Positions 6,661 to 63,860 of a stretch of 64,000 nt of DNA are shown here, piece after piece. The stretch covers positions 29,796 to 93,795 of IMG/VR virus record IMGVR_UViG_3300045988_024527, one strand, 5' to 3'. A model generated the notes under the pieces. The model was not told where the DNA came from and made no database searches. It was given only the letters and a program-made list of their open reading frames with translations. The stretch comes from a virus (lineage: Duplodnaviria; Heunggongvirae; Uroviricota; Caudoviricetes). The translations under genes and the position numbers were made by a program. Position 1 is the stretch's first letter; each line of letters opens with the position of its first letter.

Positions 6661-9390
6661 TCAATGTACCTCATACCAGCTCTTACCAACCTTTGCTGTA
6701 CCAGTTACAAGTGTTTCTTTCCTCAAACCTAAGTTTTTTGAAGCTTGTCCATACATCCAGTCAGCAATTGCTTTCATATCCTGTGTCATACCCTCTGGAC
6801 ATTCCCAACTATTTTCATCGTGATATGCCAGAAGTAACCTTGCTCCGATAGCTGGTTTTCGAGCATTCAGTTTTGTCAGGCCATCTTCACAGGCTTTTCT
6901 TGCTGCTAGGTTGATGGCCTCATTCTGAATCTGTGCTTCCGAACTCATCAGGAGGTAGTTCAGTAGTTTATGTGGAGATTTGCACCATATCCATGCTCCA
7001 GCGACCCTGATATAACCACCTTTAGCAATTGAAGAATTCTTCCCAAAAACCTCTTCCAGAGCCTTTTTAGACGCCTTAAAATCGGCTTCTAAGCTATCAA
7101 GTAACTTCTTAATCTTTGGCAGACGCATATAGTAAGTTTGTTTAGTCAATGCACCTTCTTCCGTAGATGATGCCTTGATAGTTTTTGCAAACTTCTCGTC
7201 TCCGGCTCCAAATAACAGGGCGTAGATGCCATTTTTGCTCTTCTTACGGCCTTTTGTAATCTCGTGAAGAAGTTCCTCATCCTGTGTCTCCCTACAACGA
7301 ACAATATCTTCTTCCTTGTTCAGACCAAAGTAAATACTGTTCAGTGTATGCGCATCAGTCCCTGTGTAGACTTCATAGAGGTCGTTCTCAGCATCATAAC
7401 GAAGATACTTGTCAGTTTCTGGATTAAGATACTTATTGAGATGCTTGCAATAGTATCTGCCATCCTCTTGCTTAGTGAACTCTACCGACTCTTTACCCTC
7501 AGTTACTGCTTTAGTGAAGTCTTCATCACCCATAAAGTTACAAAGAAGAACTAGCTGTGCAGAGTTCTGGTCAACTGAAACAATGTTAGTCCCTTCCTCA
7601 CAAATCCAAACCTCCCTCATAGGTGCTCCATAGACAGCAGCACCAGACGGTACGTTTACAATACCATATTGTGTCATACGTCCAGTTGAAGTACCAAACA
7701 CCATTGCACCAGCACTAAGGCGACCATCTGGACGAATCTGGTTCAACCAACCTTTTTCATCATCCTTTGAGTTCTCAATAGTTCTGCGTCTGTGCATCAA
7801 AGTATAGTACTTAGCAATCTTCTGTCCAAGCTCACCTTCAATCGTATCATAAGATGATTCAGTAAGTTTTGGTGAAGTACGGATTAAGCAAGGTTCAAGC
7901 AAATCTGTGTACTTCTTCACAGACCAGTTATGCTCAATGTACTGTACACCTTCATGTTCAACATAACTCAAACCACACCGCTCGACCATTTCCTGCCACT
8001 TAGGATGCTTTGTAATCATCTTTTTATTGTCTTTGAAACGACAAACTTTGACAGGGCGACCATCTGAGTCTTTCTTGTAGTTCCAGTCATCTGGAATCCA
8101 ACCAACTGATTTCAAGTAGTCTTTAACAACTGCTACCTGAGTCATACGAGAAACTTCAAACTCAATTGGTGTATATGGTGCATCAATCAAACCTGTGTAG
8201 CGACTTGACTCAAGTTCAAAGTGGTTAACAACATGGCTGTTATAGTACTTCACAGTTTTGACTGTTTTTACTGGCTTCCAGTCTTTGCATTTCTTACCAA
8301 TCTTTGCATTCAACTCATTGCAAATTGCACGAGCATCCTTCATTGCTACAAAGCCTTCCTTGTACTCTTCACCAGTTACAGAGTTGGTTGGTGTATAGCA
8401 ATTTCTCTTTTCAATGTTAAAAATCTTTGTAGTTGGCTTACCAAATGGTTTGATTTCGTATGTCTGCATCTCGCCATTACGTACCTGCTGACGATACTTT
8501 GTCTTAGGGTACTTGGTAATTCTTTTCAGTCCATCTGCATGACCAAATGTTTCAACATACTCATTCCAAGCTTTTGCAAACTCTTCTCCAGTGACTTTAC
8601 CTTTGGTCTTAATAGTTGGAGGAAGATGTGGTTCAACCTCTGAAGCAAGCTCATTAGTCAATTTGTCAAGTTCCTTCACATGGAACTCCATAAGCTCTTT
8701 ATCAGCTTTCCAGCCATTGATAGCTTGTTGACTCATCCAGAAAGATGTTTCTTTAGCTCGCATATAGGTTTCATAAGTATCTATGCCACACTTCTTAAGC
8801 TTGAGATACTCATTATCAAGTGCCCGTTTAGCTTTGGCGTTAATACGGATGTCTTCTACAACACGAGTGAAGATTTCTGCATTCCATACACCCCAATGCT
8901 CAATCTCTGGTTTACGAACACCAACACGAGCACCCCATGCAGCCAAACCATGAGCACCTTTATAACCCTTCGGAGTTGGTCTATCCATCCACTGAACACG
9001 AGACTGGATAAGAGAATCCTGAAAGAAATTACTCCACGGTTTACACTTTGGATTATCAAAGTTCCATAAATCAGGTGCAATGTGATTGAAAACCCACCAG
9101 TCATAACCGAGGCCGTTATGGATACAAAGTCGTTTTGCCTTTAACGCAAACTCAACACCTTCACGTAAACTACCCTTAATGTACTTGGTATACTTGTGAC
9201 CGAGGATAGGCTCATCTGTAAAGACCCATACAGGTGGCTCTTCATCGTCAGATTTATAGTCTGCGAAAGCCATTACGTGCACTTTAGTGAACTCAAGGAG
9301 TAAACCATCAGTTTCTGTATCACCAACTAAATGTAAGTTTTTAAAATCTACGTTTTCCATTTTTACTCCCTCTAAAATCATTAACCTCAT
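6661..9390 (-). CDS. DNA polymerase, family A, with 3'-5' proofreading exonuclease
   Basis: Exo I motif VGDTETDGLL; Pol motif C YHDE; motif B-like KKSKNGIYALLFGAG; 909 aa. Confidence 0.9.
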   Translation of the reverse strand: MRLMILEGVKMENVDFKNLHLVGDTETDGLLLEFTKVHVMAFADYKSDDEEPPVWVFTDEPILGHKYTKYIKGSLREGVEFALKAKRLCIHNGLGYDWWVFNHIAPDLWNFDNPKCKPWSNFFQDSLIQSRVQWMDRPTPKGYKGAHGLAAWGARVGVRKPEIEHWGVWNAEIFTRVVEDIRINAKAKRALDNEYLKLKKCGIDTYETYMRAKETSFWMSQQAINGWKADKELMEFHVKELDKLTNELASEVEPHLPPTIKTKGKVTGEEFAKAWNEYVETFGHADGLKRITKYPKTKYRQQVRNGEMQTYEIKPFGKPTTKIFNIEKRNCYTPTNSVTGEEYKEGFVAMKDARAICNELNAKIGKKCKDWKPVKTVKTVKYYNSHVVNHFELESSRYTGLIDAPYTPIEFEVSRMTQVAVVKDYLKSVGWIPDDWNYKKDSDGRPVKVCRFKDNKKMITKHPKWQEMVERCGLSYVEHEGVQYIEHNWSVKKYTDLLEPCLIRTSPKLTESSYDTIEGELGQKIAKYYTLMHRRRTIENSKDDEKGWLNQIRPDGRLSAGAMVFGTSTGRMTQYGIVNVPSGAAVYGAPMREVWICEEGTNIVSVDQNSAQLVLLCNFMGDEDFTKAVTEGKESVEFTKQEDGRYYCKHLNKYLNPETDKYLRYDAENDLYEVYTGTDAHTLNSIYFGLNKEEDIVRCRETQDEELLHEITKGRKKSKNGIYALLFGAGDEKFAKTIKASSTEEGALTKQTYYMRLPKIKKLLDSLEADFKASKKALEEVFGKNSSIAKGGYIRVAGAWIWCKSPHKLLNYLLMSSEAQIQNEAINLAARKACEDGLTKLNARKPAIGARLLLAYHDENSWECPEGMTQDMKAIADWMYGQASKNLGLRKETLVTGTAKVGKSWYEVH

Positions 9391-29783: not shown

Positions 29784-30275
29784 ATGGATAAGGGTTACTT
29801 CGAAAAATACCTAATATACGAACCGGAGACAGGTTTACTAATTTGGAAAGTAACCCTTTGCAATACCGCTATTGCTGGTAATGTTGCTGGCACAAGGTCT
29901 AAGAAGGGTTATATCCAAGTCCAGATAAATAAGAAGAGGTACTATGCACATAATATTGCATGGATTATGTCTGGAGGTGAGATACCAAGTGGATATGAGA
30001 TAGACCACATAGACCTTGATAAATCTAATAATAAGTTGGAGAATTTAAGACTTAGCACAAAATCACAAAATCAGAGGAATAGGGGTATATACAAGAATAA
30101 TAAAACTGGTGTGAAGGGTGTAAGTTTTTGTAAACAAACAGGTCTTTACAAAGCAAGAGTCATGCTTTACCATAAAGAATACTTTTGTGGAAGATTTAAA
30201 ACGGTAGAAGAAGCAAAAGAAGCTGTAATTAAAAAGCGAATAGAACTTCATGGTGAGTTTGCAAGACATAACTAA
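29784..30275 (+). CDS. HNH homing endonuclease with AP2 domain
   Basis: YEPETGLLIW, YAHNIAWIM..IDHIDLDKSNNKLENLR, GVKGVSF AP2-like. Confidence 0.8.
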   Translation: MDKGYFEKYLIYEPETGLLIWKVTLCNTAIAGNVAGTRSKKGYIQVQINKKRYYAHNIAWIMSGGEIPSGYEIDHIDLDKSNNKLENLRLSTKSQNQRNRGIYKNNKTGVKGVSFCKQTGLYKARVMLYHKEYFCGRFKTVEEAKEAVIKKRIELHGEFARHN

Positions 30276-55822: not shown

Positions 55823-57238
55823 ATGAGCGAATTATTTAAACATGCGCACCTTCATGCAGGTCGAACTGAAAATGGTGCTGTAAACCATACTTCATCAATG
55901 TCTGCTCTTGTAGACTTTTACAAAGCTGCTGGTTCAAGCCGTAGCAACGTAGAAATCTTACCAGACCTGTTCTACAAAGCTTTGCGTGAGGATGTTGATG
56001 TTGCAGTTCGTATTTTACTGCATATGCGAGATGTACGAGAAGGTATGGGTGAGCGTAAAGCCTTCAGAACTGTTTTGCTTCAAGCGATTGAAGACAAAGT
56101 TTTAGAGCCTGTACAGGTTCTTCGCATTATGGATAAGAATGCAGAACTTGGTCGTTTTGATGACTTCAAAATCTTCGTAGGTACTCGTTTCGAGACAGAT
56201 GCCTTCAAACATTTAGAAGCAGCATTACTAGACCCTGCAACAGCAGGTTTGGCGGCTAAGTGGTTACCACGAGTCAAACCACGTCATAAGCAGTTTGTAA
56301 AACGTTTCTGCAAGTTTGCCAACTTGAGTGAGAAAGAGTACCGCACACTGTTGTCTGCACTATCTGATACAGTTGAGCAAAAAATCTCTGCTAATGAGTT
56401 TGGTAAGATTGACTACAGTAAGATTCCTTCTCTTGCTGCTGCACGTTACCAAAAGCTGTTTAACCGTAAAGATGGAGAACGTTACAAAGCTTACATCGAG
56501 TCCTTATCAAAAGGTGAGACTAAGATTAACGCTGGTGCTGTTTACCCATACGATGTGATTAAATCTGTCAAGCATGGTAATGCAGATGTTGCTAATGAGC
56601 AGTGGAAAGCACTACCAAACTGGATGGCAGAAGGTGAAAACATCTTGTGTATGTCTGATGTGTCAAGTTCAATGTCTTGGGTGAATTTTGGCTCCATTAC
56701 TGCTCTGGATATTGGTGTATCACTTGCCTTGTATGTAGCAGAACGCAATACAGGTTGCTTTAAGAATGAGTTGATGGTTTATTCAACAAACCCTCACTTC
56801 ATCGAACTGAGTGGTGATTTACGAAACCGTCATCGTCAGGTGATGCAACACGTTGAATATGGCTCAACTAACTTACAAGCAGCTTTTGACCGCATTCTTG
56901 AGACAGGCAAAAGAAACAACTTGACTCAGAAAGATATGCCAAGTAAGCTTATCATCTTCTCCGATATGGAGTTCAATCATGTTGATGGGGCTGATGGTCG
57001 TACAAACTTTGAAGCAATTCAGAGTAAGTACAAAAAAGCTGGATATGAGATGCCACAACTGGTATTCTGGTACTTAGCAAACCGTAATGGTACTTGCGAA
57101 GTGTCTGTTAAGGATAACGGTGTAGCAATGGTATCTGGTTTCTCTCCAGCCACTTTAAAAGCTTTGCTTGGTGGTGAGAAGTTTGACCCAATCAGCGTAA
57201 TGCTCAAAGCAGTAATGATTGACCGTTATATCTGGTAA
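55823..57238 (+). CDS. vWA-like domain protein
   Basis: MIDAS-like CMSDVSSSMS; 471 aa. Confidence 0.5.
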   Translation: MSELFKHAHLHAGRTENGAVNHTSSMSALVDFYKAAGSSRSNVEILPDLFYKALREDVDVAVRILLHMRDVREGMGERKAFRTVLLQAIEDKVLEPVQVLRIMDKNAELGRFDDFKIFVGTRFETDAFKHLEAALLDPATAGLAAKWLPRVKPRHKQFVKRFCKFANLSEKEYRTLLSALSDTVEQKISANEFGKIDYSKIPSLAAARYQKLFNRKDGERYKAYIESLSKGETKINAGAVYPYDVIKSVKHGNADVANEQWKALPNWMAEGENILCMSDVSSSMSWVNFGSITALDIGVSLALYVAERNTGCFKNELMVYSTNPHFIELSGDLRNRHRQVMQHVEYGSTNLQAAFDRILETGKRNNLTQKDMPSKLIIFSDMEFNHVDGADGRTNFEAIQSKYKKAGYEMPQLVFWYLANRNGTCEVSVKDNGVAMVSGFSPATLKALLGGEKFDPISVMLKAVMIDRYIW

Positions 57239-57256: not shown

Positions 57257-57285
57257 TTGACAATGTGTTTAATACCCTTTAATAT
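57257..57285 (+). promoter_or_regulatory. consensus sigma70 promoter upstream of tRNA cluster
   Basis: TTGACA-17 bp-TAATAT. Confidence 0.6.
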
Positions 57286-57403
57286 GTTCTACATAGAAAC
57301 GAAATGAGAGCTTTTCTAAGATACTGAAAAATATTTTAAAAAAGTTCTTGACAATCACTAAAAAATAATGTTAAAGTGGTTACATAGAGTTTGAAAAGTT
57401 TAT

Positions 57404-57565: not shown

Positions 57566-57650
57566 GTTTTGACAGAAGACCGATTACAGCAAACAACTTT
57601 TACTTTTCGCGCATAGAAAACATAAAAAGCTTGGTCTGGTCATTAAGAAT

Positions 57651-57727: not shown

Positions 57728-57812
57728 AATTTACAGAAGACCGTTTACAGCAAAATTTAATGAAATTTTTAGCGGAAAAAATTGAAAGATACGGTCTGGT
57801 AATACTAAACAT

Positions 57813-57898: not shown

Positions 57899-57986
57899 GT
57901 GTCGTTATCCCGTAGATGGTAGCGGTGGGGACTGTAAATCCCTTGTCATTGAGACTCGGTAGGTTCGACTCCTACACGGCACACCA
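57899..57986 (+). tRNA. tRNA-Tyr (anticodon GUA), class II with long variable arm
   Basis: 88 nt; anticodon loop CTGTAAA; T-arm GTAGG-TTCGACT-CCTAC; CCA. Confidence 0.55.
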
Positions 57987-58008
57987 ATACTTAGCGAGAT
58001 ACTTAGTT

Positions 58009-58437
58009 ATGAGAGATGAAGTATACAAATCACAACTTGGTATGAGTTTAGGAACTGCACAAAACAGACTAGTAAAAGATTTGCTATTCGATTTGATATG
58101 TAAAACAAATCAAAATATATGTTTTCAGTGCGGAAAAGAAATGACTAGGGATGATTTCTCCATCGAGCATAAGATTCCGTGGAGACATAGTGAAAATGCA
58201 AAAGAGCTTTTCTTTTCATTAGATAATATTTCTTATAGTCATCTTAAATGTAATATGAAAGCAGCAAGACCAGCACAGGTATATGATAGGAAGCCTAAAC
58301 CAATTAAACACGGCACTGCACACAGCTACTCTAAAGGTTGTAGATGCGAGGAGTGTAGGCTGGCTAAGAATGCTGAGGGCAGGAAGCACTATAACCCAGA
58401 AAGGCGTAGGAAGAAGTATTTAAGAAATGGTACATAG
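58009..58437 (+). CDS. HNH endonuclease
   Basis: CFQCGKEM..FSIEHKIPW..HLKCN HNH motif; start set after tRNA-Tyr (track ORF 57916 overlaps tRNA). Confidence 0.6.
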   Translation: MRDEVYKSQLGMSLGTAQNRLVKDLLFDLICKTNQNICFQCGKEMTRDDFSIEHKIPWRHSENAKELFFSLDNISYSHLKCNMKAARPAQVYDRKPKPIKHGTAHSYSKGCRCEECRLAKNAEGRKHYNPERRRKKYLRNGT

Positions 58438-58443
58438 GGTTTT

Positions 58444-58519
58444 GGGGTGTTAGTTTAGACGGGTAAAATACTGGATTGTCTCTCCTGAGCCGCGAGTTCG
58501 ATTCTCGCACACCTCGCCA
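58444..58519 (+). tRNA. tRNA, anticodon unresolved (non-canonical anticodon arm; GUC/Asp possible)
   Basis: clear acceptor GGGGTGT/ACACCTC, T-arm GCGAG-TTCGATT-CTCGC and CCA; anticodon stem not clean. Confidence 0.4.
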
Positions 58520-58946
58520 ATTTTGAGAGGGCTATTTAGCCCCTCCCTTAAAGGGTTCTTACGAGTATCCTTTAAAGGAGCAGAAGACCAAATACAGCAA
58601 GTTACTTAAAATTTCAAGCCAATTCAATTTTGAAAAATTTAAAACTTGGTCTGGCTCAACAAATTTACAGAAGACCGTTTACAGCAAAACTTAAACAATC
58701 TATTTCTCCGGTAAAGAAAAGGCGAAGGTTCGATTCCTTCACTCGGCAGATGTCGAGTTGGTGTAATGGTAGCACTTAAGATGATAAACAACGGTCTGGT
58801 AATTATCTTTGTAGATAAGTTATTAAGCTTCCCTGTGAGTATGCGACCACAAAGGTGAAGGGTAAATTCTAGATTTAAACCCAAAAAGGCACATCGCTAC
58901 AGACCTTAAGCAAGTCTGGGTAGCTTATCTACAAAGATAATTTAAT

Positions 58947-59022
58947 GGAAGTGTAGCAGAATGGTGATGCGGCAGACTTTTAATCTGACAGGCGATGGGT
59001 TCGAATCCCTCCACTTCTACCA
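58947..59022 (+). tRNA. tRNA-Lys (anticodon UUU)
   Basis: acceptor GGAAGTG/CACTTCT, anticodon loop CTTTTAA, T-loop TTCGAAT, CCA. Confidence 0.5.
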
Positions 59023-59111: not shown

Positions 59112-59606
59112 GTGATACTTATGATTTGTGCTAACAAAGATTGCGGAAATGAAGCCGTTAAAGGTGGAAAATTTTGCTCACGCTCTTGTTCTGCAAAAGT
59201 GAACAACAAGAAACACCCAAAGAGAAGTCAGGAAGGCTCTTGCCATTCATGCGGAAAGGTAACGCCAAAAGCGAGAAAATACTGTGACGAATGTATTGCA
59301 GGTGGAGTCATGAAAAAACATAAGACCCATCATGAAAAAAGCAAAGCCAAATCACTGCACGTTAAAAAGTCTCGTGACAGACTGAAGAAGGCTTTAGTTG
59401 ATTACAAGGGTGGTTGTTGTTCAATTTGTGGTTACAATAGGTGCATAAAGGCTCTAGAGTTTCACCACTTAGACCCTAAGACAAAAGACTTCACAGTAAG
59501 TAAAAAACACTACTCACTGGCTACAATGCAGTCTGAAGTTGATAAGTGTGTCTTGCTTTGTGCAAATTGTCACAGAGAAGTACACGAAGGGGTAACAATG
59601 CTGTGA
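59112..59606 (+). CDS. HNH endonuclease
   Basis: EFHHLDP..CVLLCANCHREVH HNH motif plus N-terminal Cys-rich region. Confidence 0.65.
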   Translation: MILMICANKDCGNEAVKGGKFCSRSCSAKVNNKKHPKRSQEGSCHSCGKVTPKARKYCDECIAGGVMKKHKTHHEKSKAKSLHVKKSRDRLKKALVDYKGGCCSICGYNRCIKALEFHHLDPKTKDFTVSKKHYSLATMQSEVDKCVLLCANCHREVHEGVTML

Positions 59607-59923: not shown

Positions 59924-60005
59924 CGGGGCGTATCTCAGCTGTCTTCTAAACAGCCGTTAACCGAGTAAGTGGAGTATGCGGGTTCGAGTCCTGCCGCCTC
60001 GACCA
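59924..60005 (+). tRNA. tRNA-like gene, non-canonical (possible anticodon UCU/Arg; no clear D-arm)
   Basis: acceptor CGGGGCG/CGCCTCG, T-arm GCGGG-TTCGAGT-CCTGC, CCA; stem-loop GCTGT-CTTCTAA-ACAGC. Confidence 0.4.
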
Positions 60006-60060
60006 ATTTTGGAGAAATCATGAAAACTTGTATTAGGTGCAAACTTAGCAAGGATGAATA

Positions 60061-63029: not shown

Positions 63030-63860
63030 TAGCGGAGTGTATCCGAGCTTATTATGTTGGCATGAGTGCGATGATCAGGAAAGTGCTTCATGTGGCAGGA
63101 GAAAAATGCAGCAGCGGAGCGTAAGCAGAATATGCGATACAGGAGATATTCCGCTTCCTCGCTCACTGACTCGCTGCGCTCGGTCGTTCGGCTGCGGCGA
63201 GCGGTACAGGCTTACGGGCGGGGCGGAAGTGTCCGGGAAGATGCCAGGGAGAGACGGAAAAGGGAAGCGAGAAGGTCGCGGCGAAGCCGTTTTTCCATAG
63301 GCTCCGCCCCCCTGACAAGCATCGCGAAATCTGACGCTCAAATCAGTGGTGGCGAAACCCGACAGGACTTAAAGATCCCAGGCGTTTCCCCCTGGTAGCT
63401 CCCTCGTGCGCTCTCCTGTTCCTGCCTTTCGGTTTACCGGTGTCATTCCGCTGTTATGGCCGCGTTTGTCTCATTCCACGCCTGACACTCAGTTCCGGGT
63501 AGGCAGTTCGCTCCAAGCTGGACTGTATGCACGAACCCCCCGTTCAGTCCGACTGCTGCGCCTTGTCCGGTAACTATCGTCTTGAGTCCAACCCGGAAAG
63601 ACACGATAAAACGCCACTGGCAGCAGCCATTGGTAACTGATTTACGGAGCGAAGCGTTAAGTGTAATAGAGTTCTTGAAGTGAGCGGCTTACTACAGCTA
63701 CACTGGAAGGACAAATTAGGTCACTGCGCTCCGTGAAAGCCAGTTACCACGGTTCAGAAGTTCCCCAACTAACTGAACCCTGAAAAAGCCGCCTCCCCAG
63801 GCGGTTTTTTCTTTTCAAAAGGCTACGACGAAAGGTTATCCTGCGTCAAGATAACTTTGG
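63030..63860. other. ColE1/p15A-family plasmid replication origin region
   Basis: long stretches match remembered p15A/pMB1 ori (TTTTCCATAGGCTCCGCCCCCCTGACAAGCATC..GCGTTTCCCCCTGG..GTTCGCTCCAAGCTGG..CACGAACCCCCCGTTCAG). Confidence 0.85.
63711..63808 (+). ncRNA. RNA I-like antisense replication control RNA
   Basis: position and similarity to ColE1/p15A RNA I; ends in terminator GCCGCCTCCCCAGGCGG + TTTTTTC. Confidence 0.6.

Follow-up and report, generated by a model that had tools for sequence, protein, structure and literature searches.

A tRNA-mimicking Y-like RNA encoded near a Ro60-like protein gene in the tRNA cluster of a Felixounavirus

The stretch of DNA analysed here, hereafter the window, comprises 64,000 nucleotides of a Caudoviricetes virus (IMG/VR record IMGVR_UViG_3300045988_024527, positions 29,796 to 93,795) and covers a Felixounavirus tRNA cluster, in which ARAGORN places nine tRNAs between 57404 and 59675. 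The spacer between the tRNA-Asp and tRNA-Lys genes of this cluster (58520-58946) encodes an unannotated tRNA-mimicking Y-like RNA of a widespread phage family, which we term unit D. We are highly confident that 58669-58803 specifies a structured non-coding RNA with a tRNA-like module, whose terminal stem and CAGCAA motif recur without the tRNA-like insert in units A, B, and C, giving four units in the window. By analogy with bacterial Y RNAs, unit D is probably a previously unidentified RNA partner of the Ro60-like protein encoded about 1.4 kb upstream on the same strand (55823-57238), and the full proposal, including this partnership, appears likely to us. The coordinates of the features are collected in Table 1.

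Secondary-structure prediction of 58664-58806 by RNAfold yields a single multi-branch fold, which consists of a terminal stem, a short CUUA/UAAG helix, a variable (V) hairpin, a T arm, a closed acceptor stem, and a D arm. A previous reading made from the sequence alone had described the T arm, the acceptor strands, and the D arm as a tRNA 3' half followed by a 5' half, and all of them are present in the sequence. Specifically, the two acceptor strands form a helix of 7 bp, one of them G-U, which is closed by the loop AGAT; this loop corresponds to the discriminator A plus the 3-nt gap noted in that reading. The V hairpin occupies the place of a long variable arm and the terminal-stem module that of the anticodon arm. 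The partner halves that the earlier reading found missing are not lost: where an anticodon stem would be expected, a helix leads to the conserved terminal stem and its motif. Additionally, an inverted-repeat search pairs the flanks of unit D, AGACCGTT (58672) with AACGGTCT (58790). The G-U pairs of the structures sit on the + strand, as RNA-level structure predicts.

More than 200 Felixounavirus genomes (Felix O1, VpaE1, HY02, and others) share 95-99% identity with the spacer, and Suspvirus and Mooglevirus phages 80-90%; the spacer is unannotated in most public records, while "hypothetical proteins" are placed there in some. Comparison with these relatives shows that the acceptor pairing is kept by compensatory changes: GTCGAGT/ACTCGGC in the window appears as GGCGTGT/ACACGTT in phiSUSP1 and ESh22, and as GAAGGGT/ACCCTTC in Mordin and Michonne. 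In a six-genome Ounavirinae alignment the acceptor helix is 100% paired with three pairs changed on both sides, and the T and D arms stay invariant while the acceptor stem varies in this way. These data bear on the two explanations offered by the sequence-only reading, a decayed tRNA pair or a non-coding RNA, of which only the latter is retained. The debris of two tandem tRNA genes would fit the location inside a tRNA cluster, and tandem tRNAs mimic the order of T arm and D arm. However, the acceptor strands form a common helix that covaries among relatives, and therefore do not derive from a decayed tRNA pair; Ounavirinae show no variation in the T and D arms; a stem and a motif are conserved in the flanks; and the arrangement recurs in distant phage lineages without overlapping called tRNAs. 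A pseudogene origin of this kind seems to us highly improbable.

The neighbouring 471-residue protein was modelled with AlphaFold2 (predicted local distance difference test (pLDDT) 89.7, predicted template modelling (pTM) score 0.89, alignment of 35 sequences), and the model displays the HEAT-repeat ring and C-terminal von Willebrand factor A (vWA) domain by which Ro60 is recognised. In a Foldseek search against PDB, the top 11 matches are all Ro60/TROVE proteins, from Xenopus, Deinococcus, and Thermus phage phiLo, aligned over the full length, with E-values of 2e-8 to 3e-6 and template modelling (TM) scores up to 0.66. The Ro60 structures matched over the full length include 2i91, 1yvr, 2nvo, and 9l5y (TM 0.5-0.66); vWA-only matches to the C-terminal part follow behind them. 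At the sequence level, phmmer found no Ro60 among the PDB sequences. Of about 50,700 phage records, 710 hold a match to the DUF2828 family (PHROG 850), and their hosts include Salmonella and E. coli (Felix O1-type), Listeria, Staphylococcus, Campylobacter, Vibrio, and Mycobacterium. Bas63 gp130, the ortholog from another Felixounavirus, has been described as Ro60-like and lies directly upstream of tRNA genes (10.1101/2024.10.10.617714). In the same PhageMaP preprint it was found to counter Ppl defence, and its authors guessed that Y RNAs are among the adjacent annotated tRNAs (10.1101/2024.10.10.617714). The RNAs were not identified in that work; the candidates presented here are spacers between the tRNAs, not the annotated tRNAs themselves.

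The same arrangement was found beside DUF2828 genes of unrelated phages. The sample comprised 80 IMG/VR loci encoding DUF2828 homologs, referred to by locus labels (L-numbers) with coordinates given within each locus. A strict scan for a T arm, a 7-bp acceptor hairpin, and a D arm, whose only nucleotide requirements were the T-loop TTCRA and GG in the D loop, matched the window and related loci on the + strand but never on the - strand. It detected tRNA-like elements in eight unrelated loci, in each case on the strand of the protein and without overlap with a called tRNA. The neighbouring proteins of these phages are only 30-45% identical. In the elements of the eight loci, a terminal stem of 7-8 bp starts exactly 10 nt before C(A/C)GCAA, and its 3' strand precedes G(A/U/G)UAA; both this stem and the CAGCAA/GAUAA motifs emerged afterwards and lay outside the selection criteria of the scan. 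In an alignment of 11 family members (A3), U8, G10, A14, a D-loop G, G53, U54, U55, C56, A58, and C61 never vary and A21 hardly does; likewise invariant are the motif positions C14, G16, C17, and A18, which the initial scan had not selected, and G99 of the 3' flank. Double changes occur in 21 of 23 pairs of A3, including 7 of 7 in the terminal stem and 7 of 7 in the acceptor stem, a count that is partly circular because the sequences were chosen by a pairing descriptor.

A covariance model (CM), R1, was built from the 11 length-normalised (trimmed) sequences of A3, since the full-length MAFFT alignment misaligned loops and some 5' ends. The closing helix was anchored on the 10 nt before the motif, as a longest-stem search chose spurious distal stems in AT-rich loci. 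R1 penalises real linker lengths and shortens some matches, so that the match in the window is reported as 58693-58788. Searching both strands of 968 kb, R1 returned 68 matches with E<=1, all on the strand of the DUF2828 gene and mostly within a few hundred nucleotides of it or in adjacent tRNA clusters. A simpler descriptor (7-bp stem, N3, C[AC]GCA, 15-139 nt, partner strand, G) gave 88 matches on the gene strand of 76 loci against 10 on the opposite strand; 52 of the 76 loci hold at least one gene-strand match, and 56 of the 88 matches lie within 500 nt of the DUF2828 gene. In the window, the descriptor matches seven times on the + strand and never on the - strand, with 0.94 expected from shuffles, and units A-D account for four of the seven. 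A relaxed descriptor for the tRNA-like module was abandoned because of many false positives in AT-rich DNA; two tandem-tRNA artefacts (L054 12429, L055 11612) were discounted, as was an R1 match at the tRNA-Met/tRNA-Ile junction of Mordin (L003 1559-1654).

The family matches share the core uAAAG(A/G)AU....C(A/C)GCAA...insert...AU(C/U)CUG(A/U)UAA and fall into three classes by insert: a short AU-rich loop (whole unit 60-70 nt); the tRNA-like module, in which the acceptor stem has 7 bp, is short, or is absent; and the conserved CCUUUCUGGAGGGGAAAGCAAAAACUCGCC. The third class, a distinct and apparently undescribed structured module, is found with its conserved insert ...GAACCUUUCUGGAGGGGAAAGCAAAAACUCGCCAAAA... 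in L008 (5273-5376), L010 (3130-3238), L015 (4592-4703), L017 (1262-1379), L030 (5731-5834), and L035 (5675-5779), usually directly upstream of a tRNA-like unit and the DUF2828 gene. Mycobacterium phage Lumos carries three tandem units between the DUF2828 gene and a terminator-like hairpin with a T run (seen by eye), the middle one being tRNA-like (45 bits); in Listeria phage LP-124, a tandem array of three short units precedes the gene; the units of Campylobacter phage F207 are mixed in with its tRNAs; and in Vibrio phage R11Z one unit overlaps the ribosome-binding site of the gene. The units of all four phages contain the CAGCAA-type motif. In the literature searched, no description of these RNAs was found.

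The distribution of the units also allows a different role to be considered, namely that they are structured spacers acting in cis in polycistronic transcripts, for instance by guiding RNase processing, stabilising the RNA, or serving as translational operators, instead of being stable trans partners. All units of the window lie between tRNAs in one apparent operon, many units of other loci lie about 30 nt past the DUF2828 stop codon, and in R11Z (L088 2461-2512) and L016 (1761-1801) the module lies over or right next to the Shine-Dalgarno sequence and the DUF2828 start codon, in the manner of an operator; translational autoregulation by the protein is possible there. However, the units associate with the DUF2828 gene and not with tRNAs, as those of Lumos and LP-124 adjoin the gene without flanking tRNAs, and the tandem copies with different inserts resemble YrlA/YrlB-type sets. 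Moreover, an operator bound by the protein would remain a Ro60-like binding site, so that this explanation overlaps the one favoured here. We therefore regard a purely cis-acting role as unlikely, yet as the foremost of the alternatives.

The order of the tRNA-like parts recalls a further alternative, a circularly permuted tRNA gene yielding a functional tRNA-Thr(GGU). Permuted tRNA genes of Cyanidioschyzon merolae and some green algae produce mature decoding tRNAs through circularisation that depends on a bulge-helix-bulge (BHB) motif, and unit D shares with them a 3' portion upstream of the 5' portion and a short linker joining complementary acceptor strands. The V hairpin resembles an anticodon arm with GGU, and an intron-containing "tRNA-Thr-GGT" of 129-131 nt is annotated over unit C and the 5' part of unit D in two GenBank records, MZ726792.1 (L001 700-828) and OQ174504.1 (L002 701-831); these annotations are most likely a tRNAscan-SE artefact arising from the V hairpin and the T arm. 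In the acceptor loop of Mordin (L003 ~1244-1258, G-CCA-AACA) and of L029 (~8010-8020, A-CCA-AAAUCU), CCA is encoded right after the discriminator, which would also suit a functional tRNA and is compatible with RNase P and 3' processing yielding a CCA end.

Unlike permuted tRNA genes, however, unit D has no conserved anticodon arm and belongs to a phage of a bacterial host. Only 77% of the V-hairpin cells are paired among Ounavirinae, with a loop indel and substitutions: several Felixounaviruses have a 1-nt loop deletion, ESh22 has another loop, and the hairpin is replaced in Mordin/Mooglevirus. Most family members have no such arm, and the anticodon-like loop of the window, with C at position 33, is not conserved, which excludes a decoding tRNA. 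No standard tRNA fold covers the segment either: the Rfam tRNA model matches 58691-58741 only partially (model positions 7-64; 22 bits against a gathering score of 29), and neither Rfam nor ARAGORN reports a full cloverleaf there. The position of the 26/27 junction is held by the terminal-stem module in all family members, and no BHB motif was noticed there by eye, no BHB search having been run. To our knowledge, bacteria have no mechanism for joining tRNA positions 26 and 27. A permuted tRNA gene is thus very hard to reconcile with these observations. ARAGORN found no two-piece (permuted) transfer-messenger RNA in the window, and the idea of a group I permuted intron-exon, with the flanks as intron halves circularising a tRNA, was dropped, as there is no G before the putative 3' exon and no Rfam intron, and the flanks are the stem and the motif.

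The closest known counterparts of unit D are the YrlA Y RNAs, which combine a Ro60-binding stem with T, "AS", and D stem-loops and may have a V arm; the best YrlA matches share the strand of a Ro60 gene and lie within 4 kb of it, and RNase P cleaves the YrlA of M. smegmatis, whose acceptor stem has 7 bp (Chen et al. 2014, PMC4201824). Unit D shares the topology of the YrlA RNAs of Salmonella Typhimurium and M. smegmatis, that is, an end-to-end stem, an optional V hairpin, a T arm, a closed "acceptor" stem-loop, and a D arm, together with the 7-bp acceptor stem of the latter, the conservation of nucleotides for tRNA tertiary interactions, and a same-strand location near the gene of a Ro60-type ring protein. 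As in YrlA/YrlB sets, several RNAs occur per locus, some of them without the tRNA module like YrlB. In contrast to YrlA, the partner candidate carries DUF2828/DUF7788 instead of Pfam TROVE, and the phage RNAs of the window are embedded between tRNA genes. The search of Chen et al. was restricted to genomes annotated with the TROVE domain (PMC4201824), a criterion that probably left out phages of the DUF2828 type. Thermus phage phiLo encodes a Ro60 (PDB 9L5Y) with adjacent Yrl1 and Yrl2, which are defined by a CGAA bulge (PMC12135203). It thus likewise combines a phage-encoded Ro60 homolog with adjacent Y RNA-like genes, and its protein is the best structural match to that of the window; in contrast, no tRNA-like domain is reported for its RNAs (PMC12135203), and the two proteins are about 15% identical.

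Several points weigh against this assignment. The fold of unit D alone has a modest z-score of -1.55. The motif of YrlA is GNCGAAN0-1G or CGAA, whereas the phage units have C(A/C)GCAA with a 3' G(A/U/G)UAA, and neither GNCGAA nor CGAA occurs at the place of the terminal-stem motif. No Rfam 15 family matches any unit even at E<=10, apart from the sub-threshold partial tRNA, in a search run with no YrlA positive control. The protein is a structural homolog of Ro60 at only 12-16% identity and matches DUF2828 and DUF7788 in Pfam, but not TROVE. About one third of the DUF2828 loci are without a detected unit. In the window, the units lie 0.3-1.5 kb from the gene, always between tRNAs, and a role in the processing of tRNA precursors is possible. 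Finally, it is by genomic association and analogy that the units are linked to the Ro60-like protein.

With these points in mind, we propose that the promoters at 57257 and 57348 would drive transcription of the units within the tRNA operon, and that processing of the flanking tRNAs would release them from the polycistronic transcript. The stem/CAGCAA module of units A-D would then serve as the binding site of the phage Ro60-like ring protein, while the tRNA-like module may confer nuclease resistance and/or allow docking of tRNA-recognising host factors. The resulting Ro60-like ribonucleoprotein might act in RNA surveillance or in counter-defence during infection. A bolder version, which we consider doubtful, is that RNase P cleaves in the acceptor loop and that trimming or CCA addition yields a nicked, CCA-ended tRNA mimic on the Ro60-like ring, held by the terminal stem; it might be aminoacylated, be a decoy for or a sensor of host defence nucleases that target tRNAs, or provide a repair platform for phage tRNAs. 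Mordin/Michonne and L029 already encode the CCA after the discriminator. In such a scheme, the 7-bp acceptor stem would make unit D an RNase P substrate, as with the YrlA of M. smegmatis.

The spacer holds a second structured RNA, unit E, which is closed by the inverted repeat. The sequence-only reading had pointed out an 18-bp inverted repeat; a perfect 18-mer was found one base lower than given there, at 58802-58819 and 58924-58941, within arms of 22 nt (58801-58822 and 58921-58942) that are 95% complementary and 98 nt apart. The minimum free energy (MFE) of the unit E fold is -47 kcal/mol, and the region 58800-58946 has a z-score of -6.3 against shuffles, compared with -5.1 for the Mordin homolog. 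Like the tRNA-like arrangement in the strict scan, this structure stands out from chance expectation. Among Ounavirinae, the 24 pairs of the stem (22-24 bp) are 97% paired, four of them with both sides changed, and the internal hairpin CAGAC-CUUAAGCAA-GUCUG covaries with CAAACC...GGUUUG in Mooglevirus. The inverted repeat is thus the stem of a separate structured RNA domain beside the tRNA-like element, not part of that element. The loop of an internal hairpin of unit E resembles a miniature stem-GCAA module, which is a resemblance only.

Such a repeat could also be a DNA-level element, that is, a recombination site, a protein-binding palindrome, a homing-endonuclease target, or an insertion resembling a miniature inverted-repeat transposable element. 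HNH endonuclease genes are indeed interspersed in the cluster, and the interior of unit E exists in two versions among close relatives. However, the G-U pairs of the stems are mismatches on the other strand, the pairing is kept by compensatory changes, all family matches are strand-specific, and the interior of the inverted-repeat domain folds into conserved hairpins. These features leave next to no likelihood for a DNA element and argue for structure at the RNA level.

In the wider cluster, units A and B lie in upstream tRNA spacers and unit C shares the spacer of units D and E; the equivalent of unit C in Mordin was matched by CM R1. Directly after tRNA-Asp, two hairpins are nearly invariant in six Ounavirinae (98-99% of cells paired); they are kept across Felixounavirus, Suspvirus, and Mooglevirus, and no match was found for them. 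A consensus scan placed two sigma-70-like promoters at 57257 and 57348, and detected no terminator-like site on the + strand after them before 59691, from which a polycistronic tRNA/ncRNA transcript is inferred. RNase P cleavage at the 5' end of tRNA-Lys would set the 3' end of the spacer RNA.

Table 1 Features of the tRNA cluster and of the Y-like RNA units in the window (CM R1, covariance model built from 11 family members; MFE, minimum free energy)
Feature	Position	Strand	Remarks
Ro60-like protein gene, 471 aa	55823..57238	+	DUF2828 and DUF7788 (Pfam); PHROG 850 "RNA-binding protein"
Two sigma-70-like promoters	57257..57377	+	Upstream of tRNA cluster; consensus scan only
Unit A, short Y-like module AGACCGA-uua-CAGCAA ... 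UUGGUCU-GG	57574..57643	+	tRNA-Glu/tRNA-Met spacer; CM R1 23.5 bits; descriptor match
Unit B, short Y-like module AGACCGU-uua-CAGCAA ... ACGGUCU-GGUAAU	57735..57803	+	tRNA-Met/tRNA-Asn spacer; CM R1 29.5 bits, E 0.002; descriptor match
tRNA-Asp	58444..58519	+	5' boundary of spacer holding units C, D, and E
Two hairpins of unassigned role	58525..58580	+	Directly after tRNA-Asp; fold z-score -3.1
Unit C, short Y-like module AGACCAA-aua-CAGCAA ... UUGGUCU-GG	58582..58658	+	AU-rich hairpin insert; direct and inverted repeats; descriptor match
Unit D, long Y-like RNA (~130-135 nt)	58669..58803	+	MFE fold; CM R1 53.2 bits, E 2e-9
Terminal stem, 5' strand AGACCGUU	58672..58679	+	Pairs with 58790-58797; inverted repeat
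CAGCAA motif	58682..58687	+	2-3 nt past terminal-stem 5' strand; family signature C(A/C)GCAA
V hairpin UUUCU-CCGGUAA-AGAAA	58703..58719	+	Anticodon-arm-like
tRNA-like module (T arm to D arm)	58724-58775	+	Within unit D
T arm GAAGG-UUCGAUU-CCUUC	58724..58740	+
Closed acceptor stem, 7 bp	58741..58758	+	ACUCGGC (58741-58747), loop AGAU (58748-58751), GUCGAGU (58752-58758)
D arm GUGU-AAUGGUA-GCAC	58761..58775	+	Preceded by U8, G9
Terminal stem, 3' strand AACGGUCU	58790..58797	+	Followed by GGUAAU; family 3' flank consensus G(A/U/G)UAA
Unit E, ~140-nt structured RNA domain	58801..58942	+	Closed by inverted repeat; multi-branch interior
Hairpin CAGAC-CUUAAGCAA-GUCUG	58900-58918	+	Conserved, inside unit E
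tRNA-Lys	58947..59022	+	Begins 4 nt past unit E

Additional observations concern the surroundings of these genes. The open reading frames (ORFs) of HNH type among the tRNA genes are 57916-58437, with a weak Pfam HNH match, and 59112-59606, which has Cys-rich motifs and is without a Pfam hit; some relatives are without these ORFs, which alters the spacing of the cluster. A weak tRNA at 59924-60002 (Rfam 31.2 bits, gathering score 29), not reported by ARAGORN, is located near the end of the phage part. The phage sequence ends near 60058, and the remainder to 64000 is a 3.8-kb ColE1-type plasmid, 99.5% identical to the E. coli plasmid NZ_AP027826.1, with a HindIII-family restriction-modification pair and RNAI (63712-63813); the window thus joins two replicons or contigs and does not contain a biological junction at this place. 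Among the other loci, LP-124 encodes an RtcB-like tRNA-splicing ligase 1.3 kb downstream of the DUF2828 gene (L090 5315-6458), and Lumos a Band-7-like lipoprotein and a tRNA-Tyr upstream of it (L089 238-1170), a gene context that hints at RNA repair. Further features of uncultured phage contigs with a DUF2828 locus are a group I intron that scores 71.5 bits in Rfam (L026 11696-11922) and a suppressor-type tRNA with the anticodon UUA (L083 3231-3307).

Conservation of Ro60-Y RNA particles extends from bacteria to humans, and what they do in bacteria and phages is understood only in part. The family described here supplies concrete candidate RNAs for a large branch of Ro60-like proteins that so far had none, and shows that tRNA mimicry by Y-like RNAs reaches well beyond the YrlA family. 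It also explains spurious "tRNA-Thr" and "hypothetical protein" annotations in Felix O1-like genomes. For the reported counter-defence mechanism of gp130, the units present themselves as the obvious missing component. If the nicked tRNA mimic does exist, several hundred sequenced phages would encode a counter-defence ribonucleoprotein built on tRNA mimicry.

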